Position numbers and translations under genes: made by a program. Positions 7,464 to 54,922 of a stretch of DNA of 64,000 bases are shown here, one piece after another. The stretch lies in NCBI GenBank assembly GCA_021107435.1, contig JAIOSV010000060.1:9824-73823 (forward strand). The letters are read 5' to 3'. How positions within the stretch are numbered: position 1 is the stretch's first letter; every line of letters begins with the position of its first letter. The stretch is from Candidatus Sabulitectum sp. GTDB lineage: Bacteria; Fermentibacterota; Fermentibacteria; Fermentibacterales; JCC-6. The notes under the pieces are model-generated. The model saw only the letters and a program-made list of their open reading frames with translations, was not told where the DNA came from and made no database searches.

Positions 7464-7493
7464 TTGACCGAAAGGGGCTTTCTGTGTTATTGT
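7464..7493 (+). promoter_or_regulatory. Candidate promoter for the FIST / kinase operon
   Basis: TTGACC (7464-7469), 18 nt spacer, TATTGT (7488-7493). Lies about 70 nt upstream of the ATG at 7563. Confidence 0.3.
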
Positions 7494-7562
7494 GGCAAAG
7501 ATACTGAGACGCAAGAGAGGCGAAGGGGAAGCAAACTCATACAATAGAAACAGAGGCACATC

Positions 7563-20910: not shown

Positions 20911-22140
20911 TTGCCCGAAAGCAGTAATTTCGAAATTCTCCAGACAAGAATTGATGAATTCCGGGCATCCGGCAACTCCTTGAGTCAGAAAGATGCTATT
21001 GATCTAATAGAGCAGATAAATGCCATGAACAGAACAGACTCCGCAGGTGCCTGCATCCTTGCTGAGCAAACTCTTTCGATTTCCAGAGAAATGGGATTCG
21101 ACATGGGAATCGCGAAAAGCCTCAGTGCAATCGGGATTTCGCATTCGTATAGAGGGGAATATGAAAAAGCCCTTGACTGCAGCCTGAAAGCTCTTGCCAT
21201 TTTCAGCGCGATGAATAACTCTGCAGGTCTTTCCAGCACTCTTAATACGATTGGTATTATTTACAGAAAACTCGATAACTACGACAAATCTTTGGAGTAT
21301 TACACCAATTCTCTTCTAATAAGCAAGAAGGCAGATGATGCTAGACAAATCGCCAACACTACTAACAATATTTGTGTCCTCTACCAGGATCTTAATGAAT
21401 TTGAGAACGCTCTGGAATTTGCCAGAAAGTCTCTTCATTACTTTACTGCGTTAAAGGATGATCTTGGAATTGGCAGTTCACTGAACAACATCGGTATTAT
21501 TCTTGAGTTTCAGGGCAACTTCATTTCTGCCCTGGAACATTTTCAAAAATCTAATGATATCTTCCAGCGTATAGGCTACTTGCCCGGGCTTTCGGCAACA
21601 TGTAATAATCTGGGGGAATTGTTTACCAGGCAGAAAAAATTCAAGAAGGCCAAACGCTATTTTTCAACAGCTCTCAAAGCAGCAAAAGATACCAATACAA
21701 AAGACCACGAGATATGTTCACTTGAAAACCTTTCAATTCTGTACGAGACCATGGGCGATTTTCAGAAAGCGCTTGAATACTACATACAATACAGCGATCT
21801 CAAGCAGCAAGTGTTCAGCGAGGAAAGTGCAAAAAATATAAACCAGCTTCAAGTAAGCTACGAAACAGAAAAAAAGGAAAAAGAAAACGAAATTTTCAGG
21901 CTCAGGAATATTGAGCTTGCAAAGGCAAATGAAGAGCTGGAAAAAGCTCTCTCAGAAGTAAAAGAACTCAGCGGACTGCTTCCTATCTGTTCATCCTGCA
22001 AAAAGGTTCGTGCTGATTCCGGATACTGGGTACAGATAGAAAAATACATATCGAAGCGGTCAAACACTCAGTTCAGCCACGGATTGTGCCCTGATTGCGT
22101 GAAGAAACTTTATCCGGAATTCTCTGATGGCAATGCTTGA
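20911..22140 (+). CDS. TPR-repeat sensor protein (A1) with coiled-coil linker and C-terminal CxxC...HGxCPxC module
   Basis: About 8 TPR units (GEYEKALDCSLKALAIF, NNIGIILEFQG...), linker QLQVSYETEKKEKENEIFRLRNIEL, and tail LLPICSSCKKVRADSGYWVQIEKYISKRSNTQFSHGLCPDCVKKLYPE. Probable TTG start at 20911 after AGGGAG, conserved with paralogue A2. The ORF track opens at 20854. Confidence 0.75.
   Translation: MPESSNFEILQTRIDEFRASGNSLSQKDAIDLIEQINAMNRTDSAGACILAEQTLSISREMGFDMGIAKSLSAIGISHSYRGEYEKALDCSLKALAIFSAMNNSAGLSSTLNTIGIIYRKLDNYDKSLEYYTNSLLISKKADDARQIANTTNNICVLYQDLNEFENALEFARKSLHYFTALKDDLGIGSSLNNIGIILEFQGNFISALEHFQKSNDIFQRIGYLPGLSATCNNLGELFTRQKKFKKAKRYFSTALKAAKDTNTKDHEICSLENLSILYETMGDFQKALEYYIQYSDLKQQVFSEESAKNINQLQVSYETEKKEKENEIFRLRNIELAKANEELEKALSEVKELSGLLPICSSCKKVRADSGYWVQIEKYISKRSNTQFSHGLCPDCVKKLYPEFSDGNA
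21840..21920 (+). repeat. Near-identical ~81-nt tract shared with 23287-23367 (linker-coding part of adjacent TPR genes A1 and B1)
   Basis: Manual alignment gives about 5 mismatches in about 81 nt, including a 34-nt identical run (gaaaaagaaaacgaaattttcaggctcaggaata). The TPR regions of A1 and B1 are much more divergent than this. Confidence 0.7.
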
Positions 22141-22237: not shown

Positions 22238-23570
22238 TTGAACAAAGAAGTGGTTGCTCTCAAACACCAACTGAAGAAAATACGCTCCAGACCTCCTGCC
22301 AGCGAAACAGGCAGGGAGAGGGTTGATTTACTGAATAAGCTTGGCATGATATTCTACAGATCTCAGCCATTCAGAACCGAGGCATATGCCAGAGAAGCTC
22401 TAATCCTTTCCAAAAGAATAGGATACAGGAAAGGCGAAGCAGGAAGCAACTCTGTAATCGGTGTGGCGATGGCCTCTATAGGCAAATACAATGAAAGCAT
22501 GGAGTTCTTCAATAACGCTCGCTCAATTTACACAGAGCTTGGCGACAGGAAGTGTATCGCGGGAACATACACTAATATCGGTGTTGTATACAGCGATCAA
22601 AGCAAACTTGATCTTGCTATTGAACAACATCTTCAAGCGCTCACGATTTATGAGGACATCAATGACACCAACAGTACTGCTCATTCTCTGAATTGCATTG
22701 GTGTCGTTTTCCGCAAACGAAACAATCTTGAAAAAGCGGAATACTACTACCTGAAAGCCCTCAGACTCAGGGAGGAGACCGGAGATGCCCCAGGGTTGGC
22801 AATGTCCTATAACAATCTTGGAATTCTGGCAAAGGAACGCGGCAATCAGGAAGAAGCTCTGCAGCATTTCGACAAGTCTCTTAAACTGAAAAAAGATCTC
22901 GGTGACAGGCGTGGCATACTGGCTTCATACAGCAATATTGGAGACATCCATATGGAAACGGAAAAGTACGCTGAATCACTCATATTCTACGAGAAATCAC
23001 TTGCAATAAGTGAAGATCTCAGCGATGAAATAGATATATGTAACAATTGCATTAAAATTGGCCATGTCATGACTCTTCTAGGGAACTATAAGGGTGCCCT
23101 GGAATATCTCAACAGGGGTTTACAGATTTCCATCAGTATTGGAGCCGGAATCCTTGAATCGGACAGCTACCGGGAATTGTCAGAGCTTCACAAGTCAATG
23201 GGTAACTACGAGAAAGCTTTTCGATACTACAAGAAATGCAGCACTCTGACACTGAACATCTTCAGTGAAGAAAGCGCAAAAAGCATAAACCAGCTTCAGG
23301 TAAGTTACGAAACAGAAAAAAAAGAAAAAGAAAACGAAATTTTCAGGCTCAGGAATATCGAACTTGCCAAAACAAACAATAAACTACATAAAGCCCTTTC
23401 AGAAGTGGTAGAACTGCGCATCCTGCAAAAGAATTCGCGGTGATTCCGGATACTGGGTACAGATAGAAAAATATATATCCAGCCACTCAAATGCCCAGTT
23501 CAGCCATGGATTGTGTCCTGAGTGCATGAAAAAACTGTACCCCGAGCGCTCGAATAGCGGGATTAAGTGA
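22238..23570 (+). pseudogene. TPR-repeat sensor (B1) whose CxxC...HGxCPxC tail is out of frame (20-nt deletion relative to A1)
   Basis: The main frame ends ...ALSEVVELRILQKNSR* at 23443. The +1 frame from 23415 encodes CASCKRIRGDSGYWVQIEKYISSHSNAQFSHGLCPECMKKLYPERSNSGIK* (stop at 23568-23570). From tcagaagt to gattccgg the segment is 63 nt in A1 and 43 nt here. Confidence 0.6.
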
Positions 23571-27684: not shown

Positions 27685-27700
27685 GCTGCCACCTGTTTCA

Positions 27701-30908: not shown

Positions 30909-33900
30909 TTATGTCTGAACTCCTGAGCCATTCATGATATCATGTATTACTTTCCCGAGTTCAGTAACGCAATACGGTTTCTTTATGCAACCGCTGAAAC
31001 CGAATTGCTTATACCTGCCCATCACCGTATCCTCTGAGTAACCGCTTGATACAATCGCTTTTGCTCCCGGGTCCATATTCAGAAGCAGGACTACCGCCTT
31101 TCTTCCACCCATCCCCCCGGGTATGGTCAAATCCATGATAACCACATCAAACGGCTTTTCGCTTTCCATCGCTTCTCTGTATTTCCTAAGAGCTTCCTCG
31201 CCATTCTCGGCGAAATCAACGCTGTAGCCCAGATACTGAAGCATCTCGCCAGCCACATCGCACACCATTTTATCATCATCCATCACAAGAACACTTCCTG
31301 CTCCGAAGTGTATTGCCTGCCTGGGATCAGTTTCGGCTGAGGCATTGCTGTTCGAAGCAGGGATATACACGCGAAATTCAGTTCCGGTCGCCACTTCGGA
31401 GTCAACGGTAATACACCCATCGTGTTTTCTCAAAATAGAGTAAACTATGGAAAGACCAAGACCGCTTCCTTTTTGTTTTGTTGTGTAGTACGGATCAAAT
31501 ATTTTCTCCAGTTGATTTGCGGGTATACCTATGCCGCTGTCGGAAACAGAGATACTCACATATCTGCCTTCAGGCAGTGATGGAATTTCGTATTGACCAA
31601 CCACCTTATTTTCAGCCGTGACCGTGATCACACCGCCTTCAGGCATAGCCTGGTCCGCATTTATGATCAGATTGCTGATAACCTCACTTATCTGCCCCTT
31701 ATCAACATCCGCTGCCCAGAGGTCTTCAGAGGTGGTAATTTTTCCTCTCGACTTCGATCCTCCAAGGGCAAAATTCACTGTTTCTCTGATAAGGTCATCA
31801 ATGGATGTTGTCTCTCTGACAGGCGCACCGCCTTTTGAGAAGGTGAGAAGCTGCTGAGTCAAATCTCTGGCCCTCATGGATGCGTTCTCGGATTTTGTCA
31901 GTATTCTGTAGACATCACCTTCAGGTTCAAGTGACATCTTCGCCAGGGAAATATTTCCGAGTATGGCTGAAAGCATGTTATTAAAATCATGAGCAAGACC
32001 TCCCGCCAGTATCCCGATTGATTCCAGTCTGGCTGCCTTCCGAAGCTCTTCCTCTGTTTTACGTTCTTCGGTGACATCGTGGAAAACAACTACAGCACCC
32101 ACCAGTTTGGTTTTCTGATCCGTAATGGGGGCACAGCTATAAGCAATCGACCTCTCCAAGCCGCTTTTCTCCACAAGAATAGTGTGGCTGAAATAGCTTA
32201 CGGTATCCATGGATTCCAGTATTTCATCCACAGGATCACGGCAGAGTTCTTTTGTACTTTCATCAATGATATTAAAAACTTCGGCAAGTTTCTTTCCCGC
32301 TGCCTTATTCTGCAGCCACCCTGTCAACTCTTCGGCAACCCGGTTCATCATGATGATCTTCCCGCCGGTGTCAGTTGTAATGACAGCGTCACCAATTGAT
32401 CTCAGGGTAACAGCAAGCATCTCCTTTTCCGCCTCAAGCGCTTTCTCTGCAGTTTCGCGCTCGGATAGCTCTTTCGCCGCCCGCTCGAAAAGCCTGGCGT
32501 TCTCTATCGCGATTGCCGCCTGGTCTGCCATAAGCCTGATGATGTGCGCATCCTGCTCATCAAATGCGTTTACATCGTCGCTCTGAACATCAAGAACACC
32601 AATCACCCTACCTTCAATGCTGACGGGAACTGTCAGCTCGGAACGGCTGTCGGGAATCGCGTCCACAGGAAAGTGCCGTGGCTCAAGTCTGACATCACCG
32701 ACAAGCATGTGTTTGCCTGTATAGGCTACATACCCGCAGACACTGTCTTCCCCCACTTTCAGAGATATTCCCTTTGTCGACGCGGAATTAAAACCGGCTC
32801 CTGCCCTGATGGCCAGCATGCCCGTCGCTGGATCAATCAGCAGAATCGAGACGTAACGGTAACCGAATGACTCGTGAATAAGAGATACTGTCAGCTCCAG
32901 TAATGCATCCAGCTCCAGCATTGACGCGATGCTCCTGCCTATTTTTCCCAGTGCCGCAAGCTGTGAAACTCTTTGCTCGAGAACTTTACCCGTTCGCTTC
33001 CTTTCTCTGATTTCGTCTTTCAGTTTACTGCTGGATTCGTCCAGATCCTGCAGCATGTTCAGCGTCGCGATTCTCTGGTTTTCACTTTTTTCAAACTGTC
33101 GCTTTAACTCAATTGTTCTTTCAGAAATCCTTGTCTCAAGATTTTCCGTGTATTCCTCAAGTGCTTCTCTTGATTTGCTCAGTTCTTCGGTCATATCACA
33201 GAATGCCCTGGAGAGCTCTCCTGTTTCATCCTTTGCTCCTGTCTTAATCCGGTACCCAAGATTTCCCTTCATTATCTCTTCAACGCCTTTTTTCAGCTTC
33301 TCGATTGGATTTGCCAAACCGGATGAGACTGGTACTGAAAGAAAAACACCAAAGAGGAGTACACCGGCCATAACGACAAGCATGCTTTGCGTGAGTCTGT
33401 CAACAGGAGCGAAAGCTTCATCAACACTGATTTCGGCAATAAGAACACAGTTTATGTCCGGGATGTGAGAGTGAATGCTGATTACATCCGAGCCCATGTA
33501 ATTCCTGGTGAAAACTGCAATGTGTTCATGTTCTTCGTTTCCGAACCCGCAAACCTCCCGGATACCTCCGGCTGTTTCAAGGTCTACTTCCAGAGTTAAA
33601 GCAGCATCTTCAATGTATAAGGAAGGGGTCAACATAAGGCCTTTACTGTCAATAATATAGACCTCGCCTGTCTCTCCCAGTCCGGTTCTGTCCGTGATAG
33701 AAGAAAACAATTCCTTATCGGCATCAAAATTAACCACAACCGCTCCGACAAACTCATCGAATCTGTAAACCGGAGCTGAGATACTGAAAACAGGATTATC
33801 CGTAAACTGCGAAAAATGCAATTCACTTGTATAACCACCATCATCGGTAACATGCAGAAACAGCGGATCTTCGCTGAGATCAGCCCCGACATCCGAGTGA

Positions 33901-34259
33901 GACGAAACAATAACTGTGCCATTCCGGTTAAGCACCCTGAACCGTGAGATATCGTTGTAGGAAATGAGCATAGCTCTGATTCTTCTGTCAACAGTCTCAG
34001 TTGCTTCTTCAGTGTTCTCTGTCTCTGAAACAAGATCGATGAACACATTACCTGTTGATGTAAGCGCGGTGATTTCTTTGTACTCTCTCAGAATCGAGTT
34101 GATGTATCTCGTTTTTATCTCCGCGACTGTGGCCAGATGACCAATCATCTGTTCCTCCAGTATATCCTTCGAGATGCTTCTCACTACCAGAACAACAGAC
34201 AGTCCCGTAGCCATAATCATGGAGAAAACTACAAGCAGTATCTTTGAGCGTATTCTCAC
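30909..34259 (-). CDS. Hybrid sensor histidine kinase: Cache-like periplasmic domain - HAMP - GAF - PAS - HisKA - HATPase - REC
   Basis: 1116 aa. Two TM segments flank a domain of about 270 aa. HAMP (ANPIEKLKKGVEEIMKGNLGYRI), GAF (..VLDVQSDDVNAFDEQDAHIIRLMADQAAIAIENARLF), H-box LAHDFNNMLSAILG, G-box GSGLGLSIVY, receiver VIMDLTIPGGMGG. Confidence 0.9.
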   Translation of the reverse strand: MRIRSKILLVVFSMIMATGLSVVLVVRSISKDILEEQMIGHLATVAEIKTRYINSILREYKEITALTSTGNVFIDLVSETENTEEATETVDRRIRAMLISYNDISRFRVLNRNGTVIVSSHSDVGADLSEDPLFLHVTDDGGYTSELHFSQFTDNPVFSISAPVYRFDEFVGAVVVNFDADKELFSSITDRTGLGETGEVYIIDSKGLMLTPSLYIEDAALTLEVDLETAGGIREVCGFGNEEHEHIAVFTRNYMGSDVISIHSHIPDINCVLIAEISVDEAFAPVDRLTQSMLVVMAGVLLFGVFLSVPVSSGLANPIEKLKKGVEEIMKGNLGYRIKTGAKDETGELSRAFCDMTEELSKSREALEEYTENLETRISERTIELKRQFEKSENQRIATLNMLQDLDESSSKLKDEIRERKRTGKVLEQRVSQLAALGKIGRSIASMLELDALLELTVSLIHESFGYRYVSILLIDPATGMLAIRAGAGFNSASTKGISLKVGEDSVCGYVAYTGKHMLVGDVRLEPRHFPVDAIPDSRSELTVPVSIEGRVIGVLDVQSDDVNAFDEQDAHIIRLMADQAAIAIENARLFERAAKELSERETAEKALEAEKEMLAVTLRSIGDAVITTDTGGKIIMMNRVAEELTGWLQNKAAGKKLAEVFNIIDESTKELCRDPVDEILESMDTVSYFSHTILVEKSGLERSIAYSCAPITDQKTKLVGAVVVFHDVTEERKTEEELRKAARLESIGILAGGLAHDFNNMLSAILGNISLAKMSLEPEGDVYRILTKSENASMRARDLTQQLLTFSKGGAPVRETTSIDDLIRETVNFALGGSKSRGKITTSEDLWAADVDKGQISEVISNLIINADQAMPEGGVITVTAENKVVGQYEIPSLPEGRYVSISVSDSGIGIPANQLEKIFDPYYTTKQKGSGLGLSIVYSILRKHDGCITVDSEVATGTEFRVYIPASNSNASAETDPRQAIHFGAGSVLVMDDDKMVCDVAGEMLQYLGYSVDFAENGEEALRKYREAMESEKPFDVVIMDLTIPGGMGGRKAVVLLLNMDPGAKAIVSSGYSEDTVMGRYKQFGFSGCIKKPYCVTELGKVIHDIMNGSGVQT

Positions 34260-35305
34260 TGTAAAGCCTCTGTTCCAGCAACAGCCTTCTGATGCATGAC
34301 TCCAGTTTCGTTTTCTCCCGTTCCGATGGCTTTGATAATAGAGCAGCCCCGACAGGAATTCTCAACCCCGGGAAAGGCTCTGTAGCAGAATTGACCGATT
34401 GAATCGGGATTCATGTTAAGGGCCGCTCTGTTGCCCCAGATGACTTTCAGTTTCCTGTCCAGGAGCACTATCATATCGGGGGAACCATCAAGAAGAGCCT
34501 GTTTCTGAGCCTCGCTCTTCCGCAATGCGTCTTCCATCTTCTTTCGCTCAGTAATATCGCGGATGTATACAAGCCCTGCGCGTCTGCCCTCGTGGGTTGT
34601 AACACTGATACTGAGTCCAACGATGATCTCCCGGCCCTCCGAAGATATCAGTGTTGTTTCCATCTTCTGCCTGTCGGTCAAACCCTTCGAGAACTCCTCG
34701 TATTCCGCAATTACTCTCTGTTGCTCATCGGAGTGCAAGTAGTCGATAAACGGTTTATCGATACCGGAACCGCGGGAAAAGCCCAGAAGCTCACTGATCC
34801 GGGAATTCAGGAATACCATTCTACCGTCCTGCACTATGCAGATTCCATCACTTGAATTCTCCACGGTCAGTCTGTACTTCTCCTCGCTTTCTCTCAACCT
34901 TCTCTCGGTATTTGTTCTTTCCCTTCGCTGTTCAGCTTCATCCAGAGCCCTTCGGACGGCGGAACCAAGCCTGACGAGGTTATCTTTCAGAACACAATCG
35001 ACAGCACCCAGCCTAATGCATTCAGCTGCTCTTTCCTCACCGATAGTACCGGAAATCAGTATCATGGGTATGTCAGGTGAAATCTCCTGATGGATAAGCA
35101 GAGCGCGCGGGCAGTTGAAACCGGGCAGACTGTAATCGGCAAAGATAAGATCGGGATTGGTGTTGAGAGCTTCTCTGAACGATTTCTCCGTATCCACAAC
35201 GCTGTATTCAACTTCAAATCCGTCTTTTTCAAGCTGCCTTACGGCGAACTCGGCATCGTATCTACTGTCTTCCAGTATCAACAGTCTCAGTGTTTTTTCA
35301 TTCAC
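34256..35305 (-). CDS. Response regulator, REC domain followed by PAS domains
   Basis: LRLLILEDSRYDAEFAV...DLIFADYSLPGF; the PAS region includes RLTVENSSDGICIVQDG. The stop overlaps the kinase start by 4 nt. Confidence 0.85.
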   Translation of the reverse strand: MNEKTLRLLILEDSRYDAEFAVRQLEKDGFEVEYSVVDTEKSFREALNTNPDLIFADYSLPGFNCPRALLIHQEISPDIPMILISGTIGEERAAECIRLGAVDCVLKDNLVRLGSAVRRALDEAEQRRERTNTERRLRESEEKYRLTVENSSDGICIVQDGRMVFLNSRISELLGFSRGSGIDKPFIDYLHSDEQQRVIAEYEEFSKGLTDRQKMETTLISSEGREIIVGLSISVTTHEGRRAGLVYIRDITERKKMEDALRKSEAQKQALLDGSPDMIVLLDRKLKVIWGNRAALNMNPDSIGQFCYRAFPGVENSCRGCSIIKAIGTGENETGVMHQKAVAGTEALQ

Positions 35306-35559: not shown

Positions 35560-37290
35560 TTGCCGATCAGTAATAAGATCGAAACCCTCCAGATGGAACT
35601 TGAGAAAATCCGCGTATCCGGTATTGACCCTGACCGGGAAGGACTTGTTGATCTCCTGGAACAGATAGAAATCCTGAGTAGAACAGATCCAGAAAATGCA
35701 TGCGTTCTGGCTGAGCAGACTCTGGCAATTTCCCGCAAATCAGGATTTGAGGTGGAATGCGCAAAGAGTCTAAGACTGATTGGTATTTCATACTCACAAA
35801 GGGGTGAATATGAAAAAGCTCTTGACAACAGCCTGAAAGCACTTGCAATCTATAACGGCACAGACGACTCAGCCGGGCTCTCAAGTACTCTCAACACCAT
35901 AGGGGTTATTTACAGGAATCGTGATGATTCCCACAAAGCGCTTGAGTACTATTCCAGATCTCTTGAAATCAGTGAGAAGATTGGAGATAAAAAACGAATT
36001 GCTACCACCACGAACAACATCGGTGTCATCTATCAAAGCCTGAATGAATGGGAAAGGGCACTGGAGTTCGCGGAGAAGTCACTGCAATCCTTCACCGAGC
36101 TTGGGAATGATCTTGGGATTGCCAGTTCCTGCAATAATGTAGGTACAATTCTCCAGTATCAGGGAGATCATTCTGCCGCAAAGGAATATTTCCTGAAAGC
36201 GTATGAGATACTTCAACGCATAGGGTATAAAACCGGCCTCTCAGCATCATGTAACAACTTGGGAGAGATGTATATGAGGCAGGAAGATTTCAAGAAGGCC
36301 GGGCACTATTTCCATCAGGCTCTTGAGGCGGCAATTGAAGCTGACGCAAAAGAGCGTATACTGTACTCATACGAATATCTTTCAAACCTGCACGAGACCA
36401 TGGGGGATTTCCGGACAGCACTTCAATACTACGAAAAATACAGCAATCTCAATCAGCAGGTATTCAGCGAGGAAAGCACAAGAAACATGATTCAGCTTCA
36501 GATCAAATTTGAAACAGAAAAGAAGAAGAAGGAAGCTGAAATCTACAGACTGAAAAACATCGAATTACGGAATGAGATATCCGAACGGATACACATTGAA
36601 GAGGTGTTGAGAAAGCACCAGGAACAACTGGAGGATCAGATCAATGACCGCACTGTTGAGCTAATAGACAGTTTTAACAAACTGGAACGCAGTTTTCAGG
36701 GATCAATAGTACTTATCTCAAAAATAACGGAACTGAGGGATCCCTATACATCAGGACACCAGATCAGGGTCGCAAAGCTGGCAAGTGCCATCGCTAAAGA
36801 ACTGAATCTCCCTGAGGAAAAAGTAGAAGCGATTAACATTGCAGCTCTTGTCCATGACATAGGAAAAATCAATATACCTCAGGAAATACTGAGCAAACCC
36901 GGCGTTCTGTCCAACCTTGAGATGAGAATGATACAGATACATCCAGAAGCCGGCTACAGCATTTTAAGTGAAATCAACTTCCCCTGGCCCATAGCTGAAA
37001 TCGTCAGGGAACACCATGAGCATTTTAACGGATCAGGTTATCCGCAGGGTCTGAAGGCTGACGAAATAATGATTGAAGCTCGAATCATCTGCGTCGCTGA
37101 TGTTCTTGAAGCCATGTCTTCTCACAGACCTTACAGACCAGTTCTGGGCCTGGATGAAGCGGTACGGGAAATAACCGAAAACGAAAATGTTCTGTATGAC
37201 GGGAATGTTGTAAATGCCTGCAGGACCGTAATAATTAACAAAGGATTCAGTTTCAGCTTTTCTACCGGGAAAGGAAACCCAGGCAGTTGA
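35560..37290 (+). CDS. TPR-repeat sensor (A2, paralogue of A1) fused to an HD-GYP c-di-GMP phosphodiesterase domain
   Basis: The TPR region is collinear with A1 (ACVLAEQTLAISRKSGF...GEYEKALDNSLKALAIY...). Linker QLQIKFETEKKKKEAEIYRLKNIEL. HD-GYP motifs HDIGKINIPQEIL and HHEHFNGSGYPQGL. Probable TTG start at 35560 after AAGGGGG. The ORF track opens at 35461. Confidence 0.85.
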   Translation: MPISNKIETLQMELEKIRVSGIDPDREGLVDLLEQIEILSRTDPENACVLAEQTLAISRKSGFEVECAKSLRLIGISYSQRGEYEKALDNSLKALAIYNGTDDSAGLSSTLNTIGVIYRNRDDSHKALEYYSRSLEISEKIGDKKRIATTTNNIGVIYQSLNEWERALEFAEKSLQSFTELGNDLGIASSCNNVGTILQYQGDHSAAKEYFLKAYEILQRIGYKTGLSASCNNLGEMYMRQEDFKKAGHYFHQALEAAIEADAKERILYSYEYLSNLHETMGDFRTALQYYEKYSNLNQQVFSEESTRNMIQLQIKFETEKKKKEAEIYRLKNIELRNEISERIHIEEVLRKHQEQLEDQINDRTVELIDSFNKLERSFQGSIVLISKITELRDPYTSGHQIRVAKLASAIAKELNLPEEKVEAINIAALVHDIGKINIPQEILSKPGVLSNLEMRMIQIHPEAGYSILSEINFPWPIAEIVREHHEHFNGSGYPQGLKADEIMIEARIICVADVLEAMSSHRPYRPVLGLDEAVREITENENVLYDGNVVNACRTVIINKGFSFSFSTGKGNPGS

Positions 37291-39107
37291 AAACGGAAGT
37301 TGCCGAACTCAAACAACGATTGAAAAAAATACGCTCCCGGCCTTCTACCGGGGAAACCGGCAGGGAAAGAGTTGACTTGCTGAATAAACTTGGGATGGCA
37401 TCGTACAGGTCCGATCCCCTTATGACTGATGTCTATGCCAGTGAAGCCATGGCTCTTTCAGCAGAAATCGGGTACAGGAAAGGCGAAGCAAGAAGTAATG
37501 CTGTATTCGGTATCGGTATCGCCTCCAGGGGAAAGTACTTCGAAAGCATGAAGTATTTCAATACCGCTCACGCAATCTATACTGAGCTGGATGACAAAAA
37601 AGGCCTTGCAGACACCTATACCAATGTCGGAATTATATACAGCGATCAGGGTAGACTTGATCTTGCGCTTGAGCATCACCTTAAAGCACTGGCAATTGAT
37701 GAGGCAATCAATGATAATGTCAGCCTTTCTCACTCCCTTAACTGTATTGGCGTTGTTTTCCGCAAACGCAATGATCTGGAGAAGGCAGAATATTACTACA
37801 TGAAAGCTCTCAAACTGAGGGAAATTACAGGGGATATCTCCGGACTGGCAATATCATACAACAACATAGGAATTCTGGCAAAAGAGCGCGGCAATCTGGA
37901 AGAAGCTCTGCAGCATTTCAACAGATCTCTGAAGCTGAAGGAAGATCTGGGTGACAAGCGGGGCATACTTGTTTCATACACAAATATAGGAGATATCCAC
38001 ACAAAACTGGAAGAATACACTGAGTCACTCGGATACTACAAGAAATCTCTGGCTATCGGAGAAGAAATCAGTGACGAGAAGAATTGTTGCGAAAACTGTA
38101 ACAAGATTGGCCATATTTTAACTCTACTTGGAGAGTATGAGAATGCCCTGGAATATCTTAAGCGGGGTTTACAGATTTCACTTGATATCGGAATGGGAAT
38201 CCTCGAAGCAAACAGCTATAGAAAGCTTTCTGATCTTTACAGATCAACAGGCGATTATGAAAAGGCTTTTAAGCACTACAAGAAGCACAGCATCCTGACA
38301 CGGGAAATCTTCGGCGAGAAAAGTGCCGAAACCATCAACAGATTGCAGATCAGGTATGAAACCGAAAAGAAGGAAAAAGAAGCGGAACTGTACTATCTGA
38401 GAAATGTAGAACTGCAGCGAGAGATAAATGAGAGAAAACAGGTCGAGAACCAGCTGACAGCCCACGAACATCTTCTAGAAGAGCGTGTAAGGAATCGTAC
38501 CGCCGAGCTTCAAAAAAGCTTAGGAAAACTGAAAAAGAGTGTAGCGGGAACTATTCGTACTCTGTCGAAAATTATTGAATCAAAGGATCCTTACACATCA
38601 GGTCATCAAATGAGAGTCGCGGAACTTTCCCGGCTGATCGCAATTGAAATGGGACTCACTGAAGAAAAGATTGAAGCCATATTCATGATCTCACTTGTTC
38701 ACGACATTGGTAAGATATGCATACCTCAGGAAATCCTCTCCCGATCCTGGAAACTCTCCCCGCTGGAGCAGGAAATAGTACAGACGCATCCTCAAACCGG
38801 ATACGATATACTTTCTGAAGTAGAGTTTCCCTGGCCGGTTGCAGAAGTGATCCTGCAGCATCATGAAACGCACAATGGTACAGGTTATCCCAATGGCCTT
38901 AAGCGTGAAGAGATCATGATTGAGGCAAGAATCATAGCTGTAGCTGATGTCGTGGAAGCCATGACATCACACCGTCCATACAGATCTATTCCCGGTCTTG
39001 AAAAAGCAATTGAAGAAATCTCAGTGAATTCCGGCAAGCTTTACGACCCGAATGTGGTTGATGCATGCAAAAACGTTATACGTAAAAAGGGTCTGCCTTT
39101 TCAATAA
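37287..39107 (+). CDS. TPR-repeat sensor (B2, paralogue of B1) fused to an HD-GYP domain
   Basis: The N-terminus MKTEVAELKQRLKKIRSRPSTGETGRERVDLLNKLGM closely matches B1 (MNKEVVALKHQLKKIRSRPPASETGRERVDLLNKLGM). HD-GYP motifs HDIGKICIPQEIL and HHETHNGTGYPNGL. The start overlaps the A2 stop (ATGA-type, 4 nt). Confidence 0.88.
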   Translation: MKTEVAELKQRLKKIRSRPSTGETGRERVDLLNKLGMASYRSDPLMTDVYASEAMALSAEIGYRKGEARSNAVFGIGIASRGKYFESMKYFNTAHAIYTELDDKKGLADTYTNVGIIYSDQGRLDLALEHHLKALAIDEAINDNVSLSHSLNCIGVVFRKRNDLEKAEYYYMKALKLREITGDISGLAISYNNIGILAKERGNLEEALQHFNRSLKLKEDLGDKRGILVSYTNIGDIHTKLEEYTESLGYYKKSLAIGEEISDEKNCCENCNKIGHILTLLGEYENALEYLKRGLQISLDIGMGILEANSYRKLSDLYRSTGDYEKAFKHYKKHSILTREIFGEKSAETINRLQIRYETEKKEKEAELYYLRNVELQREINERKQVENQLTAHEHLLEERVRNRTAELQKSLGKLKKSVAGTIRTLSKIIESKDPYTSGHQMRVAELSRLIAIEMGLTEEKIEAIFMISLVHDIGKICIPQEILSRSWKLSPLEQEIVQTHPQTGYDILSEVEFPWPVAEVILQHHETHNGTGYPNGLKREEIMIEARIIAVADVVEAMTSHRPYRSIPGLEKAIEEISVNSGKLYDPNVVDACKNVIRKKGLPFQ

Positions 39108-40225: not shown

Positions 40226-42382
40226 TTACCTCAGTACAACAAGTCTCGCGGAATCAGAATTTCCCGCATTTGTAATACCCCTGCAGAAGTAGATACCTGA
40301 AGGAGCAAGAGTGCCGGTATCATCCCTGCAATCCCAGGAAGCAACATGATTCCCCGGATTCATTAAGACATCGGCAATTACCGAGATTACTCTTCCGTGC
40401 ATGTCGTATACTTCAATTCTCACATCAACTGCCGACAGACCACCCACATAGAATGGAACTGAAGCAGAAACCGAACATGGGTTGGGATATATACTCTGAA
40501 TACAAAGCGGTGAAGCCCAATCAGATTCGGTCTGTTCAGCAATCCCTGTCTGATCAACATACAGATGGGCTGTGAGATCAACACGCTGTGTTACATTGAG
40601 AGATGACTCATTTGATAACATCGTACTGTACATCTCGTCGGAGGGAATAATGAAATCCGCACCTCCTGAACTGCTGTTCTCCGCTATCTCAAAAGCTTCG
40701 AACGGATCGCCCCCGGTGTAGTCCAGATAGCTGATCTCATCGCAGATGAAGAAGTCAACACTTCCCGGAGAATATGTTTCCGAGTAGATATCTCCATCAT
40801 CAAGGTTTGTTCCGTAGACTGTTTCACCCGAGGAGCTGTACTCAATTACAAGCCTGTAATCATCGGTGGGCGATCCCGGAGGTGAATCAGGTGAGATATC
40901 CAGCCAGGTTACCTCGCCGGAAAGTACTACATCCACCGTGTAGTGCTGACCTGTAACAGTTGATGTTGTAACTGTGTAGTTGCCTGAAGCCGGAAACGTT
41001 CCGACAGGACTGGTTACTTTAATATATAGAGGCCTGTTGTCACCAAAGAGATACTGACCGGAGCCTGAACTTCCCGTGTAATCCACAAGGCATCGCGGCC
41101 CGGGTGTTCCGTCGCTGTTAAGTATTATACAGGCACCGTCAACCGGGTTCCCGATATTATCGGTCACGTTCACTGTGAGTGTGCAAACATCAGTATATCG
41201 CTCAGTCACATTCCAGGTATAACCGTCTCCCCTCCAGTCAAACACAGAAGCCATATCCCAGCCCCAGCCGGGATCGTAAACCCTCGGGTCGTTAATGTGT
41301 GTTCCAACCGGCTCCCAGGCTATCCATTCCCTCTCCCAGAATTCGTTTGTCTTGTGGTCATTTCTATACATTACTGATACTGTCGCAGGTATAAGTGCTG
41401 TTCTTGTTGCAGCAGTTGTCATGTATGAATGAACACTGCAGGTTCCTTCATGCCAGTTGTATATCCTGACAGGCTGGTTGTGGTGAGGGTGAGAGTGGAA
41501 CCACATGACTTCGGTTACCCATGCGCTCAGGGCTCCGATAGCTCCGTTGTCAAGACTGTTCACATTGCAGTTCCACAGGGTTTTGCATGCTGAAAGGGAA
41601 TCTTTCAGCAGGGGATAACCGGAATCCGCGTGGTTGAACAGATAATCTCTCCAGAAAACCCCGGTGGGAGGAGCGGCATATGCCCCTGTGGCTGGATTTA
41701 TGTAATCCGGCCTTTCCCGGTGAATTTTGGGGTGAACAACGAACCAGTAGTAGATATCCTGCGGCAGTTCAAGACAAAGGGTATCCGGATCTTCATAAAC
41801 CTTATACTCGACTGTCGAATAGTAGTTACCGCCGCCGGATGAAGTTCCGTAATCTACTATGTCGGCGTAGTCAAGGAATTCATCCGTATCATACAGAAGC
41901 GACACATTGTAAGTGAGAATCTCCGGGTGAAAGCTGCTGCTGCCCAGCGTCTGCGGAGCTGTGTGAGCTATCTCAAAAGCAATTTCATCGACCCAGGGAT
42001 CAGATGCTCCCAGAATAATACCTGCATACAAATCCTGGTAAGAATCTGAAAGCCTGGAGAAGTTGTCCGCCAAATCGATCTGAAGCCACTCCGGTGCTTT
42101 CTCCACCGCATCATAAGCAAGATCTGTCAGTCCGCTCTCGGGAGGCTCAAAAGCAAGTGTTCCCGAGCTGTTCATGAAGGTGATTACACATTCCTCACCG
42201 GCAGGAATTCTAATCGAAGCGTTGATCGAATCCACAAGCACCCATTCATAGCCGTCAGGCAGTGGTTCGACTATCTCTCCAGTAGCAACTGCTTCTCCTG
42301 GCAGAAAAAGCAGAATCGTACAGGTGACGAAAGCAATTCTGAAGACTGCTGACATCACCTGAGTTTTTCTTCTATTGTTCAT
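40226..42382 (-). CDS. Secreted transglutaminase-like (papain-fold) protein with T9SS C-terminal sorting domain
   Basis: Signal peptide present. Transglutaminase-core-like Cys/His/Asp arrangement in HEGTCSVHSYMTTAATRTALIPATVSVMYRNDHKTNEFWEREWIAWEP. CTD: IYPNPCSVSASVPFYV...VRIEVYDMHGRVISVI...SGIYFCRG. Confidence 0.65.
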   Translation of the reverse strand: MNNRRKTQVMSAVFRIAFVTCTILLFLPGEAVATGEIVEPLPDGYEWVLVDSINASIRIPAGEECVITFMNSSGTLAFEPPESGLTDLAYDAVEKAPEWLQIDLADNFSRLSDSYQDLYAGIILGASDPWVDEIAFEIAHTAPQTLGSSSFHPEILTYNVSLLYDTDEFLDYADIVDYGTSSGGGNYYSTVEYKVYEDPDTLCLELPQDIYYWFVVHPKIHRERPDYINPATGAYAAPPTGVFWRDYLFNHADSGYPLLKDSLSACKTLWNCNVNSLDNGAIGALSAWVTEVMWFHSHPHHNQPVRIYNWHEGTCSVHSYMTTAATRTALIPATVSVMYRNDHKTNEFWEREWIAWEPVGTHINDPRVYDPGWGWDMASVFDWRGDGYTWNVTERYTDVCTLTVNVTDNIGNPVDGACIILNSDGTPGPRCLVDYTGSSGSGQYLFGDNRPLYIKVTSPVGTFPASGNYTVTTSTVTGQHYTVDVVLSGEVTWLDISPDSPPGSPTDDYRLVIEYSSSGETVYGTNLDDGDIYSETYSPGSVDFFICDEISYLDYTGGDPFEAFEIAENSSSGGADFIIPSDEMYSTMLSNESSLNVTQRVDLTAHLYVDQTGIAEQTESDWASPLCIQSIYPNPCSVSASVPFYVGGLSAVDVRIEVYDMHGRVISVIADVLMNPGNHVASWDCRDDTGTLAPSGIYFCRGITNAGNSDSARLVVLR

Positions 42383-47328: not shown

Positions 47329-47401
47329 CATCTAACCGCAACGAGAGAATTTTCAAATTGTAATTTTGATGTTTCACAAACACTTTCAGGGGAGAAAGAA
47401 A

Positions 47402-51709: not shown

Positions 51710-54700
51710 TTGAGAAGCAATATGAATGATGTCAAAAGAGAGTACATAGATGATCTTACCGGTTTGTACAATCGTCGTTTTCTTAGCATAAAGGCTCAAG
51801 AGTATTTTCGAACTGACAACATGAAAACTTCCCCCGCATCAATTCTTCTCATAGATCTCGACCATTTCAAGAATGTTAACGACACATACGGTCATTCAAT
51901 GGGTGATACCGTTTTGAAAGAATTCTCCTCATTGCTTGAAGAGCTCGTCAGGGGCAATGATCTTGTATTCAGATACGGTGGAGATGAGTTTATCTGCATC
52001 CTTCCACGTACAGCTTACGAGCATGCGGAAAGGATTTCACACAGATTTATTGAAAAATGTCGATTAAAGGAATTTTCACGGGTTCGCCTTACAATGAGTA
52101 TAGGAATCGCGTCATTCCCTCATGAGGCTAATGAATGGAAAGACCTTTTTGATCTTGCCGATCAGCGTCTTTACAGTGCAAAGAGACACGGTCGCGACAG
52201 AATAGGTGTTCCAATAAGCGAAATGCGCAGTCTGGTAATTCCCACAAGAGAGATTGTCGGTCGCAGTATTGAACTTTCCAAAGTAGCATCTTCTGTTGAA
52301 TTATCTTCAGATATTCATGGCAGGGTTTTTTGCATCAGCGGTGAAATCGGAGTGGGTAAGTCCAGACTTGCCGGAGAAATTGTTGATATGGATAAATTCA
52401 AATCCCTCAAGTTTCTCGGCAGCATTCTATCTGCTACCACCCTTTCGATTCCGTACTTCCCCTTCCGGGAACTCATCCGATCCATTGTCAGAATAGATGG
52501 TGGACTATGTCTCAGCAATATCCCCCGGGCTTACAGAATAGAACTTGCTAAAATCGTTCCAGAATTAACGGACAGTATTGGTGAGAGTACAGGTGAAGTG
52601 CTTTTCGTTGATAAATTCCGTCTTTTCGAAGGAGTTAGAAGGCTACTTGAACAACAGGTTGTCAAAAATCCATTCATCATCTCTATTGATAACATCCACT
52701 GGGCTGATGAGGGTTCGCTTGAACTTCTCCATTACACAATCAGAGCGTTTCACAACAGTCCAATTCTGTTCCTTCTCATCTATCGTATTGAGGAAGCGGA
52801 TAGAAAGTGTTTTAAGAGAATACTCAATGACATGTCCAGGGAAGGGCTGTATACACAGATCACCCTTAAACCTCTTGATATTCCTGATGTATCCAGGATG
52901 CTCTCATTGATAATCGACAGAACTCCACCTCTTGAACTCACTGAATACATCTATAAGAAAACAGGGGGAAATCCATTCTTCATCGAAGAACTTATGAAAT
53001 CCCTTCATGAGAGCGGAGCTCTTCACTGGGGAAATGACATGTGGAAATTTCGTGAAGACAGGGTGGACGTAATTCCTCATTCCATCAAAGATGTAATAGA
53101 CAGAAAACTGGATTTCGTCTCCGCTGAAGCCAGGAATCTAATAGAACACGCTGCTGTAATCGGCAGGGAATTCTGCTTCAGCTTTCTGCTGGAAATAACT
53201 GACTGGAACGAAGGTCAACTCTTTGACCTTATGGATGAAGCACTAAGAACAGGGCTTCTTAAGGAGTACAGCGGTGAACGATACTTCTTCCCTGAAGATG
53301 TCATAAGAGAAGTAGTTTACAACGGAATGAATAAAGCCAGACGCCAGAGGTTTCACCTGACAATTGCCGAAAAGCAACTGGCTTTACACAGAGAAAGGGG
53401 GGAAGAAGCCATAGAAGATCTATCCCTGCACTTCTATCTGGGTGGAAATGCGGAAAAAGCGCTCGAATACAGCATTTCAGCCGGTGACAAGGCAAGAGAA
53501 TCATACGCTTACAGAGAAGCAGTAGAGTATTACGACAGGGCAATTGATTCCTTCAAAACAAACTGTACAGTGCCGAACAGGAAAAACATAAAGTGTCTGA
53601 TGAACAGAGCTGTTGCGCTGAATGTTCTCGGGGAGAGTGAGAAGGCAGTTCATGAACTTCAGAAAGTAATTCGACAATCAATCAAAATTTCAGACAGAGA
53701 ACTTGAAATTGATGGGCTTCTTCATCTCTGCAAGCCATACCTGGATACTGCTGAATATGAAAAGGCTCTGGAAAAGGCTGAAGAAGCTGAAAAGATATCA
53801 CGAGAAATAAATAACATGAAAAAAGTAGCGGATGCCCTGGACAACTGCGGTCTCAGCTACTGGCATCTGGGCAGATATCACGAAGCTGTGAAGTACTATT
53901 TAGAGTCGCTGAAAATACTGGAAAAAATGGGTGGGAAATCAGCCAGCCCAGCTACTCTCAACAACATAGGTGCTGCCTGCTGGAACCTTGGAGAATACAA
54001 CAGAGCAATGGACTATTTCAAGAATTCGCTGGAAATAGCGGAGCGAATTGGTGATTTGAAGACAAATGCAGCATCCCTCAACAACTGCGGTCTGGTACAC
54101 TGGGGATTCTGTGAATACAGAAAGGCACTTGAATACTTCATGAGATCACTTGAGATATCCGAAAAAACAGGGAACAGAAATTCAGCAGCAATGAATCTTA
54201 ACAACATCGGCAAGGCGCATGAGCTTTTCAGTGAGTACAGCAAATCCCTTGAGTTCTTTAATCGCTCACTGGCAATTACAAGAGAAACCGGTGACCGCAG
54301 AACCGAATCGACGATCCTGGCCAATATGGGTGATATCAACAGGATCCTCGGCAAATACAAAACATCTCTCGAGTTTATCAGTGATTCGCTTGTTATCAGG
54401 CACAGCACAGGCGATCGCAGAGGAATAATGGAATGCCTGATGAGCAAAGGTGACACGCTGGCCTTTATGGACAAATTCGAAGCTGCCGGGGAATGCTATA
54501 TACAATCCCGTGAAATAGCATTTGAGATTGATGCAGTAAGCCAGATACAAGGAATTGAGATCAGCATCCTCTCTCTCGATTTTGAGGAGAACAAACTTGA
54601 AGGAGTGGAAAAGGGAATAGCGAAGATTCTCCTCTCTCAGAAGGAATCCGTTAGCAGAAGTTTGAAGGCATCAGCTCATCAACTGGCCGGCAGACTTTAT

Positions 54701-54922
54701 GCGAAAAAGCTTGACTGGAACAGATCAACTGAATCCTTTGATAAATCCGCAGACATTTTCAAAAAACTTGATAACAACTATGACCTCGCGATCACGCTTT
54801 TTTATAAAGGGCAGATGCATAAAGAGTCCGGTAACAAAGTCGAATCAGATGAATGTTACGCAAAAGCGAAAAGGATTTTTACCAGCATTTCGGCAAACGG
54901 ATGGCTAAAACGCCTGGGATAA
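51710..54922 (+). CDS. GGDEF diguanylate cyclase - STAND/AAA ATPase - TPR multidomain protein
   Basis: DDLTGLYNRRFL...RGND(5 aa)GGDEF (I-site and A-site both intact). P-loop ISGEIGVGKSRLAGE. Long helical arm, then at least 8 TPR units (ALDNCGLSYWHLGRYHEAVKYY..., LNNIGAACWNLGEYNRAMDYF...). An alternative ATG lies at 51722. Confidence 0.85.
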   Translation: MRSNMNDVKREYIDDLTGLYNRRFLSIKAQEYFRTDNMKTSPASILLIDLDHFKNVNDTYGHSMGDTVLKEFSSLLEELVRGNDLVFRYGGDEFICILPRTAYEHAERISHRFIEKCRLKEFSRVRLTMSIGIASFPHEANEWKDLFDLADQRLYSAKRHGRDRIGVPISEMRSLVIPTREIVGRSIELSKVASSVELSSDIHGRVFCISGEIGVGKSRLAGEIVDMDKFKSLKFLGSILSATTLSIPYFPFRELIRSIVRIDGGLCLSNIPRAYRIELAKIVPELTDSIGESTGEVLFVDKFRLFEGVRRLLEQQVVKNPFIISIDNIHWADEGSLELLHYTIRAFHNSPILFLLIYRIEEADRKCFKRILNDMSREGLYTQITLKPLDIPDVSRMLSLIIDRTPPLELTEYIYKKTGGNPFFIEELMKSLHESGALHWGNDMWKFREDRVDVIPHSIKDVIDRKLDFVSAEARNLIEHAAVIGREFCFSFLLEITDWNEGQLFDLMDEALRTGLLKEYSGERYFFPEDVIREVVYNGMNKARRQRFHLTIAEKQLALHRERGEEAIEDLSLHFYLGGNAEKALEYSISAGDKARESYAYREAVEYYDRAIDSFKTNCTVPNRKNIKCLMNRAVALNVLGESEKAVHELQKVIRQSIKISDRELEIDGLLHLCKPYLDTAEYEKALEKAEEAEKISREINNMKKVADALDNCGLSYWHLGRYHEAVKYYLESLKILEKMGGKSASPATLNNIGAACWNLGEYNRAMDYFKNSLEIAERIGDLKTNAASLNNCGLVHWGFCEYRKALEYFMRSLEISEKTGNRNSAAMNLNNIGKAHELFSEYSKSLEFFNRSLAITRETGDRRTESTILANMGDINRILGKYKTSLEFISDSLVIRHSTGDRRGIMECLMSKGDTLAFMDKFEAAGECYIQSREIAFEIDAVSQIQGIEISILSLDFEENKLEGVEKGIAKILLSQKESVSRSLKASAHQLAGRLYAKKLDWNRSTESFDKSADIFKKLDNNYDLAITLFYKGQMHKESGNKVESDECYAKAKRIFTSISANGWLKRLG

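Follow-up and report, generated by a model that had tools for sequence, protein, structure and literature searches.

The window, that is, the whole stretch of 64,000 nucleotides analysed here, contains two tandem gene pairs, A1-B1 and A2-B2, that encode the same kind of sensor, an array of TPR repeats followed by a coiled-coil linker, with different C-terminal modules, namely a Cys-rich tail of about 50 amino acids and an HD-GYP domain, respectively (Table 1). The question raised by this locus is how the two pairs came to differ in this manner, and what the tail, which takes the place of a phosphodiesterase, could do for the cell.

Table 1. The two gene pairs and their neighbours, with positions in the window
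Feature	Coordinates	Strand	Remarks
Hybrid kinase, dCache-HAMP-GAF-PAS-HATPase-REC	30909..34259	-	syntenic with L084
REC-PAS protein	34256..35305	-	divergent to A2
A1: TPR array, coiled-coil linker, Cys-rich tail	20911..22140	+	409 aa from TTG 20911
A1 linker core YETEKKEKENEIFRLRNIEL	21859..21918	+	final stretch that A1 shares with A2 and B2; swap junction
A1 tail module EKALSEVKELSGLLPICSSCKKVRADSGYWVQIEKYISKRSNTQFSHGLCPDCVKKLYPEFSDGNA	21940..22137	+	CxxC...HxxCxxC motif at 21988-22098
B1: TPR array, linker	22238..23443	+	frameshift cuts the ORF to 401 aa
B1 tail remnant NCASCKRIRGDSGYWVQIEKYISSHSNAQFSHGLCPECMKKLYPERSNSGIK, then stop	23412..23570	+	+1 frame; 20-nt deletion junction 23415/23416
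A2: TPR array, linker, ~64-aa helical spacer, HD-GYP	35560..37290	+	576 aa; HD...GYP motif 36853-37044
B2: TPR array, linker, ~64-aa helical spacer, HD-GYP	37287..39107	+	606 aa; HD...GYP motif 38700-38891
GGDEF-AAA_16(STAND)-TPR protein	51710..54922	+	downstream of A2-B2

Two gene pairs that part at the coiled-coil linker

The earlier note had described four genes on the + strand, and the coordinates of A1, A2 and B2 stand, whereas the 3' end of B1 had to be moved from 23570 to the stop of its ORF at 23443. Both A1 and A2 start with TTG, preceded by AGGGAG and AGGGGG, respectively; the A2 start agrees with the database gene call (P0323, 576 aa), and the call for A1 (P0306, 425 aa) begins further upstream. 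The A2 stop and the B2 start codon overlap (TTGA). Domain annotation also agrees with the note on the neighbours, namely the REC-PAS protein, the hybrid kinase and the GGDEF-STAND-TPR protein. Another locus, L002, has a homologue of the latter (43% identical) 2.3 kb downstream of its B2 orthologue. Around both gene pairs, scans for promoters and terminators returned no more sites than shuffled sequence.

The two pairs are collinear paralogues. In local BLOSUM62 alignments, A1 and A2 are 57.6% identical over 342 aa, and B1 and B2 67.3% over 382 aa, compared with just 26-39% between A and B (34-39% in alignments of the same type). Throughout the TPR array, the identity within both pairs is 46-86% in 30-column windows, and it ends right after ...ETEKK.KE..[IL][FY].L[RK]N[IV]EL, so that similarity ceases at the linker in all four proteins, as had been noticed on the first reading of the sequence. 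The array of A1 matches TPR_12 of Pfam at 6e-48, and all four proteins match the same TPR families, which could suggest that the likeness of the pairs is an artefact of repeat composition. The alignments refute this reading: apart from the difference between within-family and between-family identity, the database search E-values (2e-112 for the A2 TPR region against A1, 2e-161 for B1 against B2) are far beyond what TPR low complexity would yield, and the alignments are collinear over the full length, which takes in a 40-aa insertion specific to B as well as N-termini outside the repeats. A1 is clearly closer to A2 than to either B protein. As read from the translations, the distances beyond the junction are constant, with 43 residues between ETEKK and the first Cys in the tail proteins, and 64 residues between N[IV]EL and DPYTSGH in both A2 and B2.

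The HD-GYP domains of A2 and B2 are intact. They score well above the gathering cut-off of 27.2 for HD_5 of Pfam (A2, 1e-41, 143 bits; B2, 6e-39, 134 bits), match HD with 86 and 76 bits, respectively, contain the HD dyad and a motif of the HHExxDGxGYP type (HDIGK...HHEHFNGSGYP in A2, HDIGK...HHETHNGTGYP in B2), and also match NCBIfam models of the c-di-GMP phosphodiesterase type. Among the solved HD-GYP enzymes, 4MCW and 5Z7C are homologous to A2/B2 (E of 2e-33 and 8e-37); these relatives cover both c-di-GMP (4MCW) and cGAMP (5Z7C) enzymes, and the best PDB match is the cGAMP-specific one. The substrate is most likely c-di-GMP, 3'3'-cGAMP being a further possibility.

The Cys-rich tail had been assigned to both genes of the 21-23.5 kb pair, and this holds for A1, where it is in frame (CSSC...HGLCPDC), but not for B1, which, as encoded, falls outside the tail family. 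The B1 ORF ends with ...ALSEVVELRILQKNSR and a stop, and the tail codons (NCASCKRIRGDSGYW...FSHGLCPECMKKLYP... up to their own stop) are in the +1 frame because 20 nt have been deleted at the junction relative to the orthologue, with loss of the codons for LSGLLPI. Programmed +1 frameshifting was considered as a rescue of B1 and rejected: only a shift at one particular codon (GAA, 23411-23413) would retain the CxxC, and even then the product would lack the LSGLLPI strand. In the Ca. Sabulitectum orthologue of B1 (L005), the tail is in frame, the conserved His is replaced with Ser and KLYP is lost; no close orthologue of B1 turned up in a metagenome scan, in which the best match was at 37%. The frameshift might be non-biological, with the tail intact in the cell and the gap due to faulty assembly or consensus calling or to a minority allele of the MAG, considering that the remnant retains all invariant tail residues, is stop-free for 52 codons and differs from A1 in 12 synonymous and 9 non-synonymous codons of 44, and that the orthologous tail is in frame. 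Such an error appears unlikely, however, because a clean 20-nt loss flanked by CT microhomology is atypical of sequencing errors, because the 401-aa ORF is missing from the database proteins among which A1, A2 and B2 of the window are present (as expected of a gene that was not called as a normal protein), and because the B-type tail is degenerate in Ca. Sabulitectum as well. If A and B form a complex, this repeated decay of B-type tails may mean that one tail suffices there.

Duplication of the A-B unit and the polarity of the exchange

In all eight B-family loci (the window, L001, L002, L003, L084, L085, L086 and L088), the flanking genes of which differ, the gene immediately preceding the B-type gene is of the A type, so that the survey of relatives proposed in the note yields adjacency in varied genomic contexts. 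The A and B genes are thus adjacent, co-oriented and conserved together, and both encode TPR proteins. The HD-GYP version is by far the prevalent one: HD_5 was detected in 26 of the 27 A-family clusters at ≥53% identity and in all 28 B-family clusters at ≥51%. Tail-bearing pairs are rare: they were found only in this window and, as A1-B1, in one Ca. Sabulitectum MAG (L005).

The neighbour-joining trees of the A and B TPR regions (~300 columns; w, window copy; s, Sabulitectum copy) are congruent. In the A tree, (A1w,A1s) is the sister group of (A2w,P0324), with bootstrap values of 81-98%; in the B tree, (B1w,B1s) is the sister group of (B2w,P0203,P0206,P0207), and the joint clade has a bootstrap of 97%. 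Outside the clade of the window copies, there are about 25 further members per family, and each of these carries HD-GYP. Because the tail genes are sisters to the HD-GYP genes of the window and all outside members carry HD-GYP, the A-B pair appears to have been duplicated as a unit, with HD-GYP ancestral and the tail derived. On these trees, the direction of the swap is from HD-GYP to tail, and the exchange of the output that the note had proposed sits exactly at the coiled-coil junction.

Some nodes are only moderately supported (69% for (B1w,B1s), 81% for the A1+A2w clade), and potential donors are plentiful in the phylum: Aegiribacteria, Fermentibacteria and Desulfuromonadaceae possess TPR-tail proteins (446-456 aa) that are nearly identical in linker and tail, including a tandem pair in L007. 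These observations would be compatible with two separate duplications and two separate output swaps of A1 and B1, in place of an operon duplication. Such a double course of events seems quite improbable given that both paralogues occupy the same relative branching position in the A and B trees, that both retain gene order and spacing in two genomes, and that the linkers of A1 and B1 are 74-85% identical, compared with 26-30% for their TPR arrays.

Within the window, the linkers of A1 and B1 are identical in amino acid sequence and 92% identical in nucleotide sequence over 30 codons, and a 46-aa linker segment is 85% identical between the two, compared with 63% in Sabulitectum. The nucleotide identity of A1w and B1w (81%) is close to that of A1w and A1s (82%), so that the codon comparison does not separate gene conversion from slow divergence. 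Since the tail is so strongly conserved across phyla, the likeness of the A1 and B1 tails (81% at the nucleotide level) is no proof, taken alone, of one swap with subsequent gene conversion.

The Cys-rich tail and its probable place among signal outputs

The last ~65 aa of A1 have no match in Pfam or NCBIfam. Searched with the tail, the NCBIfam models return nothing even at E≤10, the best Pfam E-values are 0.03-0.1, over stretches of ~10 residues, with no significant match to the known zinc-finger and zinc-ribbon families, and the PDB sequences yield chance matches only (E≥0.95). The AlphaFold2 model (pLDDT 82.7) is a compact beta-alpha-alpha-beta-alpha fold, with each Cys pair at a strand-to-helix turn, for which Foldseek found no match in the PDB (best E 1.3). 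A literature search for the tail motif turned up nothing specific, and keyword searches for a Cys-rich or zinc output domain retrieved nothing but archaeal domains unrelated to the tail (HalOD2 and TackOD1, for example).

Despite this lack of annotation, the tail is extremely common. A profile built from the A1 tail and 49 matches retrieves 24,955 cluster representatives (50% identity) at E≤1e-3, of which 20,870 reach E≤1e-10, from more than 12 phyla, with 52-79% identity to the A1 tail of the window in those genomes. The consensus, L..AL.EVK.L.GLLPIC..CKK[IV]R.D.GYW..IE.Y....S.A.F[ST]HG.CP.C..K.YP, located C-terminally behind a helix, is followed by A1 throughout. The CxxC..HxxCxxC motif is present in 149 of the 150 top matches, with a median of 17 residues past the last Cys; none of the four Cys varies, and conservation of the His is 90% or more. 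In the best-scoring members, the tail is almost always C-terminal, after PAS, HAMP, GAF, REC or TPR sensor domains, and the partner domains in 111 high-scoring proteins are limited to PAS, HAMP, GAF, REC, Cache, MASE and SBP, with no known output domain. Among the database relatives, the TPR-linker module is fused elsewhere to HD-GYP, histidine kinase, adenylate cyclase or SpoIIE. Neighbourhood clustering of 80 tail loci revealed no conserved partner gene, the recurrent neighbours being only other PAS proteins and antisense ORFs.

The C-terminal placement, the sensors-only partners and the lack of a known output domain imply that the tail occupies the output slot. The note had taken the tail to fill the same signalling slot as the phosphodiesterase; the equivalence apparent from the sequences is architectural, and does not demonstrate a role of the tail in c-di-GMP signalling. 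The conservation of five Cys/His ligands, the anaerobic leaning of the distribution (Thermodesulfobacteriota, Aegiribacteria, Nitrospirota, Chloroflexota) and the absence of a conserved partner gene nearby could also point to a module for redox or metal (Fe-S or Zn) input or regulation, or to a mere clasp that stabilises the dimer, in which case the tail proteins would signal by other means. We consider such a role doubtful inasmuch as it would leave most members, which consist of sensors and tail only, without any output, and does not fit the replacement of an enzymatic domain at a fixed helical distance or the very high cross-phylum conservation, which suits a conserved interaction surface. 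From these features, we infer an output function for the tail; the broader proposal, that the ~50-aa CxxC...HxxCxxC tail is a major, hitherto undescribed output domain of bacterial signalling, is a plausible but still tentative one.

Taken as a whole, the following scenario probably accounts best for the observations. The ancestral bicistronic operon, conserved in Ca. Aegiribacteria/Fermentibacteria-like bacteria, encoded two divergent cytoplasmic sensors, A and B (TPR regions ~30% identical), each with a TPR array leading through a coiled coil of fixed length, a signalling helix, to an HD-GYP phosphodiesterase. The entire operon was duplicated in the lineage of the window, and in the A1-B1 copy, everything from just before ...QLQVSYETEKKEKE was replaced by a linker and a Cys-rich tail of 45-50 aa, as in the third, TPR-tail protein family of the same phylum; the A1 tail was kept intact, and that of B1 was disabled later, in the window, by the 20-nt deletion. 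A2 and B2 are likely to be dimeric, signal-gated cyclic-dinucleotide phosphodiesterases, in which the helix presumably relays the ligand or protein state of the array to the catalytic domain. A and B would share a pathway, and an association between them might involve TPRs or coiled coils. The tail is probably a mini-domain of the Zn(Cys)4 type, next to which lies a conserved His, and would be a non-enzymatic output the geometry of which, at the end of the dimeric helix, would shift with the signal and thereby control the binding of a partner, perhaps a highly conserved cellular protein or nucleic acid encoded away from the locus.

If so, both members of a conserved two-gene unit would have undergone a clean, recent and polarised swap, with the exchange point within one turn of the signalling helix, and a Cys-rich C-terminal module that is very abundant, yet missing from the searched domain libraries, is thereby placed in a functional context. 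Should the tail be an output domain, A1-B1 and A2-B2 amount to a natural experiment in which one kind of sensor and helix drives either the tail or an HD-GYP phosphodiesterase, so that chimeras and partner hunts are directly feasible; should it be a real effector domain, thousands of output-less 'PAS domain proteins' and 'hypothetical proteins' would gain an output.

Comparison with known signalling systems

Output swapping is well known among modular sensor proteins, and there is nothing unusual about TPR-HD-GYP proteins within the c-di-GMP toolkit. The TPR array and the ...YETEKKE... coiled-coil linker are shared with TPR sensor histidine kinases of Bacteroidota and relatives, and positions ~37-359 of the FimS model (NCBIfam NF053520) match the TPR array and linker of the A/B proteins, albeit at 81-114 bits against a cut-off of 600. 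In database relatives of the A/B proteins, the sensor-linker cassette is joined to HisKA/HATPase, a LytS-type kinase, adenylate cyclase or SpoIIE, whereas searches of Pfam and NCBIfam detect no HisKA/HATPase kinase core in any of the four A/B proteins.

Small Cys4 zinc modules are common at the ends of regulatory proteins, as in zinc ribbons, the C4 fingers of DksA/TraR and the Hx3Cx2C motif of ZAS anti-sigma factors. The tail resembles these in having two CxxC pairs and a His within ~37 residues at the protein end, but differs from the ZAS motif in its Hx2Cx2C spacing, and from the zinc modules in general in the predicted location of the Cys pairs at strand-to-helix turns, in a fold with no PDB match.

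The C-terminal region of A2/B2 (~190 aa) can be aligned from end to end with the HD-GYP phosphodiesterases (PmGH, 4MCW; V-cGAP3, 5Z7C; the RpfG type), with which it shares the HD, HHE and GYP motifs. These enzymes differ in carrying REC, GAF or DUF3391 at the N-terminus, where A2/B2 have a TPR array and a long coiled coil, and in that A2 and B2 are encoded as a conserved tandem pair of divergent paralogues. The searched text of the HD-GYP census makes no mention of TPR.

With respect to joint action, a counterpart in architecture is RcbAB of Vibrio vulnificus, a bicistronic unit of a TPR protein and a TPR-GGDEF protein, which interact via both TPR domains and so control a c-di-GMP enzyme (PMC12282931). 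By analogy with this system, and given the adjacency in all eight loci, A and B might form a hetero-oligomer; co-regulation alone could explain the adjacency as well. Like RcbAB, the A/B units consist of two adjacent genes, each encoding N-terminal TPR domains; unlike in RcbAB, both partners carry the HD-GYP enzyme, or both carry the tail.

Paralogy and duplication of the two gene pairs

The four plus-strand open reading frames are the genes named in the earlier note, except that B1 does not extend as far as claimed, and TPR_12-type repeats predominate in all four encoded proteins (E-values from 1e-43 to 1e-52).

Coordinates and start sites of the two TPR gene pairs in the window
Gene	Positions	Strand	Remarks
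A1	20911-22140	+	TTG start six bases after AGGGAG
B1	22238-23443	+	ORF; stop at 23443, not 23570
A2	35560-37290	+	TTG start after AAGGGGG; public gene call P0323 (576 aa) has the same start
B2	37287-39107	+	TTG start overlapping the A2 stop (TTGA)

In local alignments, A1 and A2 are 57.6% identical over 342 aa, and B1 and B2 are 67.3% identical over 382 aa, compared with 34-39% in all A-B comparisons; for the TPR region alone, the identity is 58% and 69% within the families versus 26-33% between them. The within-family similarity runs along the entire TPR array (46-86% identity in 30-column windows), yields database E-values of 2e-112 (A2 TPR region versus A1) and 2e-161 (B1 versus B2), and ends directly after the linker motif ...[YF]ETEKK.KE.E[IL][FY].L[RK]N[IV]EL. 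The paralogy is therefore real, with A1 closer to A2 than to either B protein, the similarity is not an artefact of low-complexity TPR matching, and its boundary lies at the coiled-coil linker, as noted before. A 40-residue insertion is common to the B proteins and absent from the A proteins.

Bootstrapped neighbor-joining trees of the TPR regions place A1 beside A2 and B1 beside B2. In the A tree, the A1 proteins of the window and of the Candidatus Sabulitectum MAG (L005) group together with 100% support, and their sister group is A2 with P0324 (81-98%), with 15 further A-family HD-GYP proteins falling outside this clade; in the B tree, the two B1 proteins (69%) are the sister group of B2, P0203, P0206 and P0207, and the joint clade (97%) is nested among about 20 further HD-GYP proteins. 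The two topologies are congruent, and among close database relatives, the HD_5 domain is carried by 26 of 27 A-family clusters and by all 28 B-family clusters. Together, these observations show that the A-B operon was duplicated as one unit, as had been proposed, and that HD-GYP was the ancestral output, with the Cys-rich tail as its derived replacement. The earlier interpretation is thus supported in part and gains a direction, from HD-GYP to the tail.

The Cys-rich tail

The notable element of the locus is the tail domain, which is uncatalogued yet very common. Searches of Pfam and NCBIfam at E-values up to 10, and a sequence search of the PDB, gave zero matches, and a Foldseek comparison with the PDB retrieved zero analogs of the AF2 model (pLDDT 82.7), a compact beta-alpha-alpha-beta-alpha unit in which every Cys pair is placed at a strand-to-helix turn. 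A profile constructed from the A1 tail and 49 hits, searched against 1.84 billion 50%-identity clusters, matches 24,955 representatives at E≤1e-3 and 20,870 at E≤1e-10. The pattern CxxC-x20-40-HxxCxxC is present in 149 of the top 150 hits, with a median of 17 residues after the last Cys; no variation is seen at the four Cys or at P, R, D, G and W, and conservation of the His is 90% or higher. Genome matches, with tails 52-79% identical to that of the window, come from Thermodesulfobacteriota, Aegiribacteria, Hydrogenedentota, Latescibacterota, Spirochaetota, Nitrospirota, Chloroflexota, Ignavibacteriota, Verrucomicrobiota, Acidobacteriota, Bacteroidota, Bdellovibrionota and other phyla. The companion domains in 111 of the top hits are PAS (71), HAMP (10), REC (5) and GAF (5) as well as Cache, MASE, SBP_bac_3 and cNMP-binding domains, and none of these 111 proteins contains a known output domain; neither is there a conserved neighbor gene across 80 loci. 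Some database proteins among P0053-P0091 have an internal tail module in addition to the C-terminal one (e.g. 158-194 and 385-421 in P0053; 466-502 and 1350-1386 in P0059), so that either the tail is not strictly terminal or neighboring genes have been fused.

In relatives, the TPR-linker cassette is fused to HD-GYP, HisKA_2, HisKA_3 and LytS-type kinases, adenylate cyclase and SpoIIE, so that the tail clearly sits in the output position; the locus shows that it can take the place of an enzymatic output at an identical junction. The claim that the tail fills the same signaling slot stands with respect to position; as for what the tail does, the best reading is a predicted Zn(Cys)4 effector that would bind a highly conserved partner.

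Across both genomes, linker identity between A1 and B1 amounts to 74-85%, but identity to HD-GYP-type linkers is only 50-63%. The A1 and B1 linkers bear a close resemblance to the linker-tail part of TPR-tail proteins of a third family (446-456 aa; Aegiribacteria, Fermentibacteria and Desulfuromonadaceae), which are the likely donors of the new linker-tail module. The codon data are compatible with, but do not require, a single swap that was subsequently copied into the adjacent gene.

The tail was claimed for both genes at 21-23.5 kb, which holds for A1 but not for B1; all other points of the observation stand. In frame, B1 ends in ...ALSEVVELRILQKNSR followed by a stop, and the tail, NCASCKRIRGDSGYWVQIEKYISSHSNAQFSHGLCPECMKKLYPERSNSGIK with its stop, lies in the +1 frame (23412-23570). 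Alignment with A1 and with the L005 ortholog of B1 reveals a clean 20-nt deletion, corresponding to TAGCGGACTGCTTCCCATCT in that ortholog, with CT microhomology at its borders and with loss of the codons for LSGLLPI. The remnant, in which 12 synonymous and 9 non-synonymous differences from A1 are spread over 44 codons, retains all the invariant residues and contains zero stop codons, so that the lesion is either recent or an assembly artefact, the latter being rather unlikely. The 401-aa B1 ORF is not among the database proteins, in a search that retrieved A1 (P0306), A2 (P0323) and B2 (P0204) of the window. In L005, the B1 tail is in frame, with the conserved His replaced by Ser and with the terminus LLCNTD in place of KLYP. 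The B-type tail is decayed in both genomes that carry it, which is compatible with the speculation that one tail would be sufficient in a putative A-B complex. A 206-aa TPR-tail gene about 1 kb upstream of the A2-B2 pair of a Ca. Aegiribacteria MAG (L001:2576-3196) has a decayed tail as well, with a frameshift after YISDHS and, in the other frame, FSHGIYPEC, the third Cys being replaced by Tyr.

Conservation and genomic neighborhood of the pairs

Orthologs of B2 with 63-78% identity are found in Ca. Aegiribacteria MAGs, and at each of the eight loci where the sequence extends far enough upstream (the window, L001, L002, L003, L084, L085, L086 and L088), the gene immediately preceding the B-type gene is an A-type TPR-HD-GYP gene, the surrounding genes being variable. 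P0231, at 38% identity a distant relative, is unpaired. The A1-B1 tail pair is present again in L005, with an A1 ortholog 74% identical to that of the window. In L088, the B-type HD-GYP gene overlaps at its stop with a gene (6818-7537) for a 239-aa TPR-only protein, which may be a third TPR partner. A Ca. Fermentibacteria MAG (L007:4380-7071) carries tandem, overlapping TPR-tail genes of the third family that are 65% identical, so tandem pairing of TPR sensors recurs beyond the A and B families.

The REC-PAS gene and the dCache-HAMP-GAF-PAS hybrid kinase, divergent from the second pair, were confirmed; the kinase is syntenic in L084. The REC-PAS gene (34256-35305, minus strand), located between the kinase and A2 in the window, is missing from the otherwise syntenic L084 locus, where only about 335 nt separate the kinase and A2 starts. 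The GGDEF-AAA_16-TPR gene (51710-54922) has a 43% identical homolog in L002, 2.3 kb downstream of the pair and adjoining a PAS-HD-GYP gene. Upstream of the tail pair in L005 lies a Fur-family-like regulator (797-1231, minus strand; HxxCxxC... and CGEC motifs); the region preceding A1 in the window lacks this regulator and instead carries Ppnp nucleoside phosphorylase and TldD/PmbA genes. Elsewhere in the window (23689-24432, 40226-42382, 47366-49054 and others), secreted-looking proteins with C-terminal FlgD_ig or Por_Secre_tail (T9SS-type) domains fit an organism of the FCB superphylum, and a galT-like (HPHGQ motif) and galK-like pair and, after it, a large DUF1680/GH127-like protein were identified by eye (25496-29614, minus strand).

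HD-GYP outputs and coupling of the A and B proteins

HMM annotation confirms the HD-GYP domains of the 35-39 kb pair: A2 and B2 match HD_5 (1e-41 and 6e-39, respectively) as well as HD, and both contain HDIGK and HHE..NG.GYP. They align over about 190 residues with PmGH (4MCW, 2e-33) and V-cGAP3 (5Z7C, 8e-37), the latter being cGAMP-specific; from their sequences, A2 and B2 look catalytically competent, with c-di-GMP and 3'3'-cGAMP as possible substrates. In the translations, 64 residues separate N[IV]EL from DPYTSGH in A2 and B2 alike, and 43 residues separate ETEKK from the first Cys in A1 and the third family alike; such fixed lengths match what rigid helical signal transmission would predict. 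The A2/B2 pair consists of ordinary members of the known HD-GYP family; what is uncommon about them is the sensor and the pairing.

Functional coupling of A and B is argued for by their conserved adjacency, the overlap of the A2 stop with the B2 start in the window, and their joint duplication. A precedent for such coupling of adjacent TPR genes is RcbAB of Vibrio vulnificus, a bicistronic TPR/TPR-GGDEF pair in which both TPR domains mediate the interaction of the two proteins (PMC12282931).
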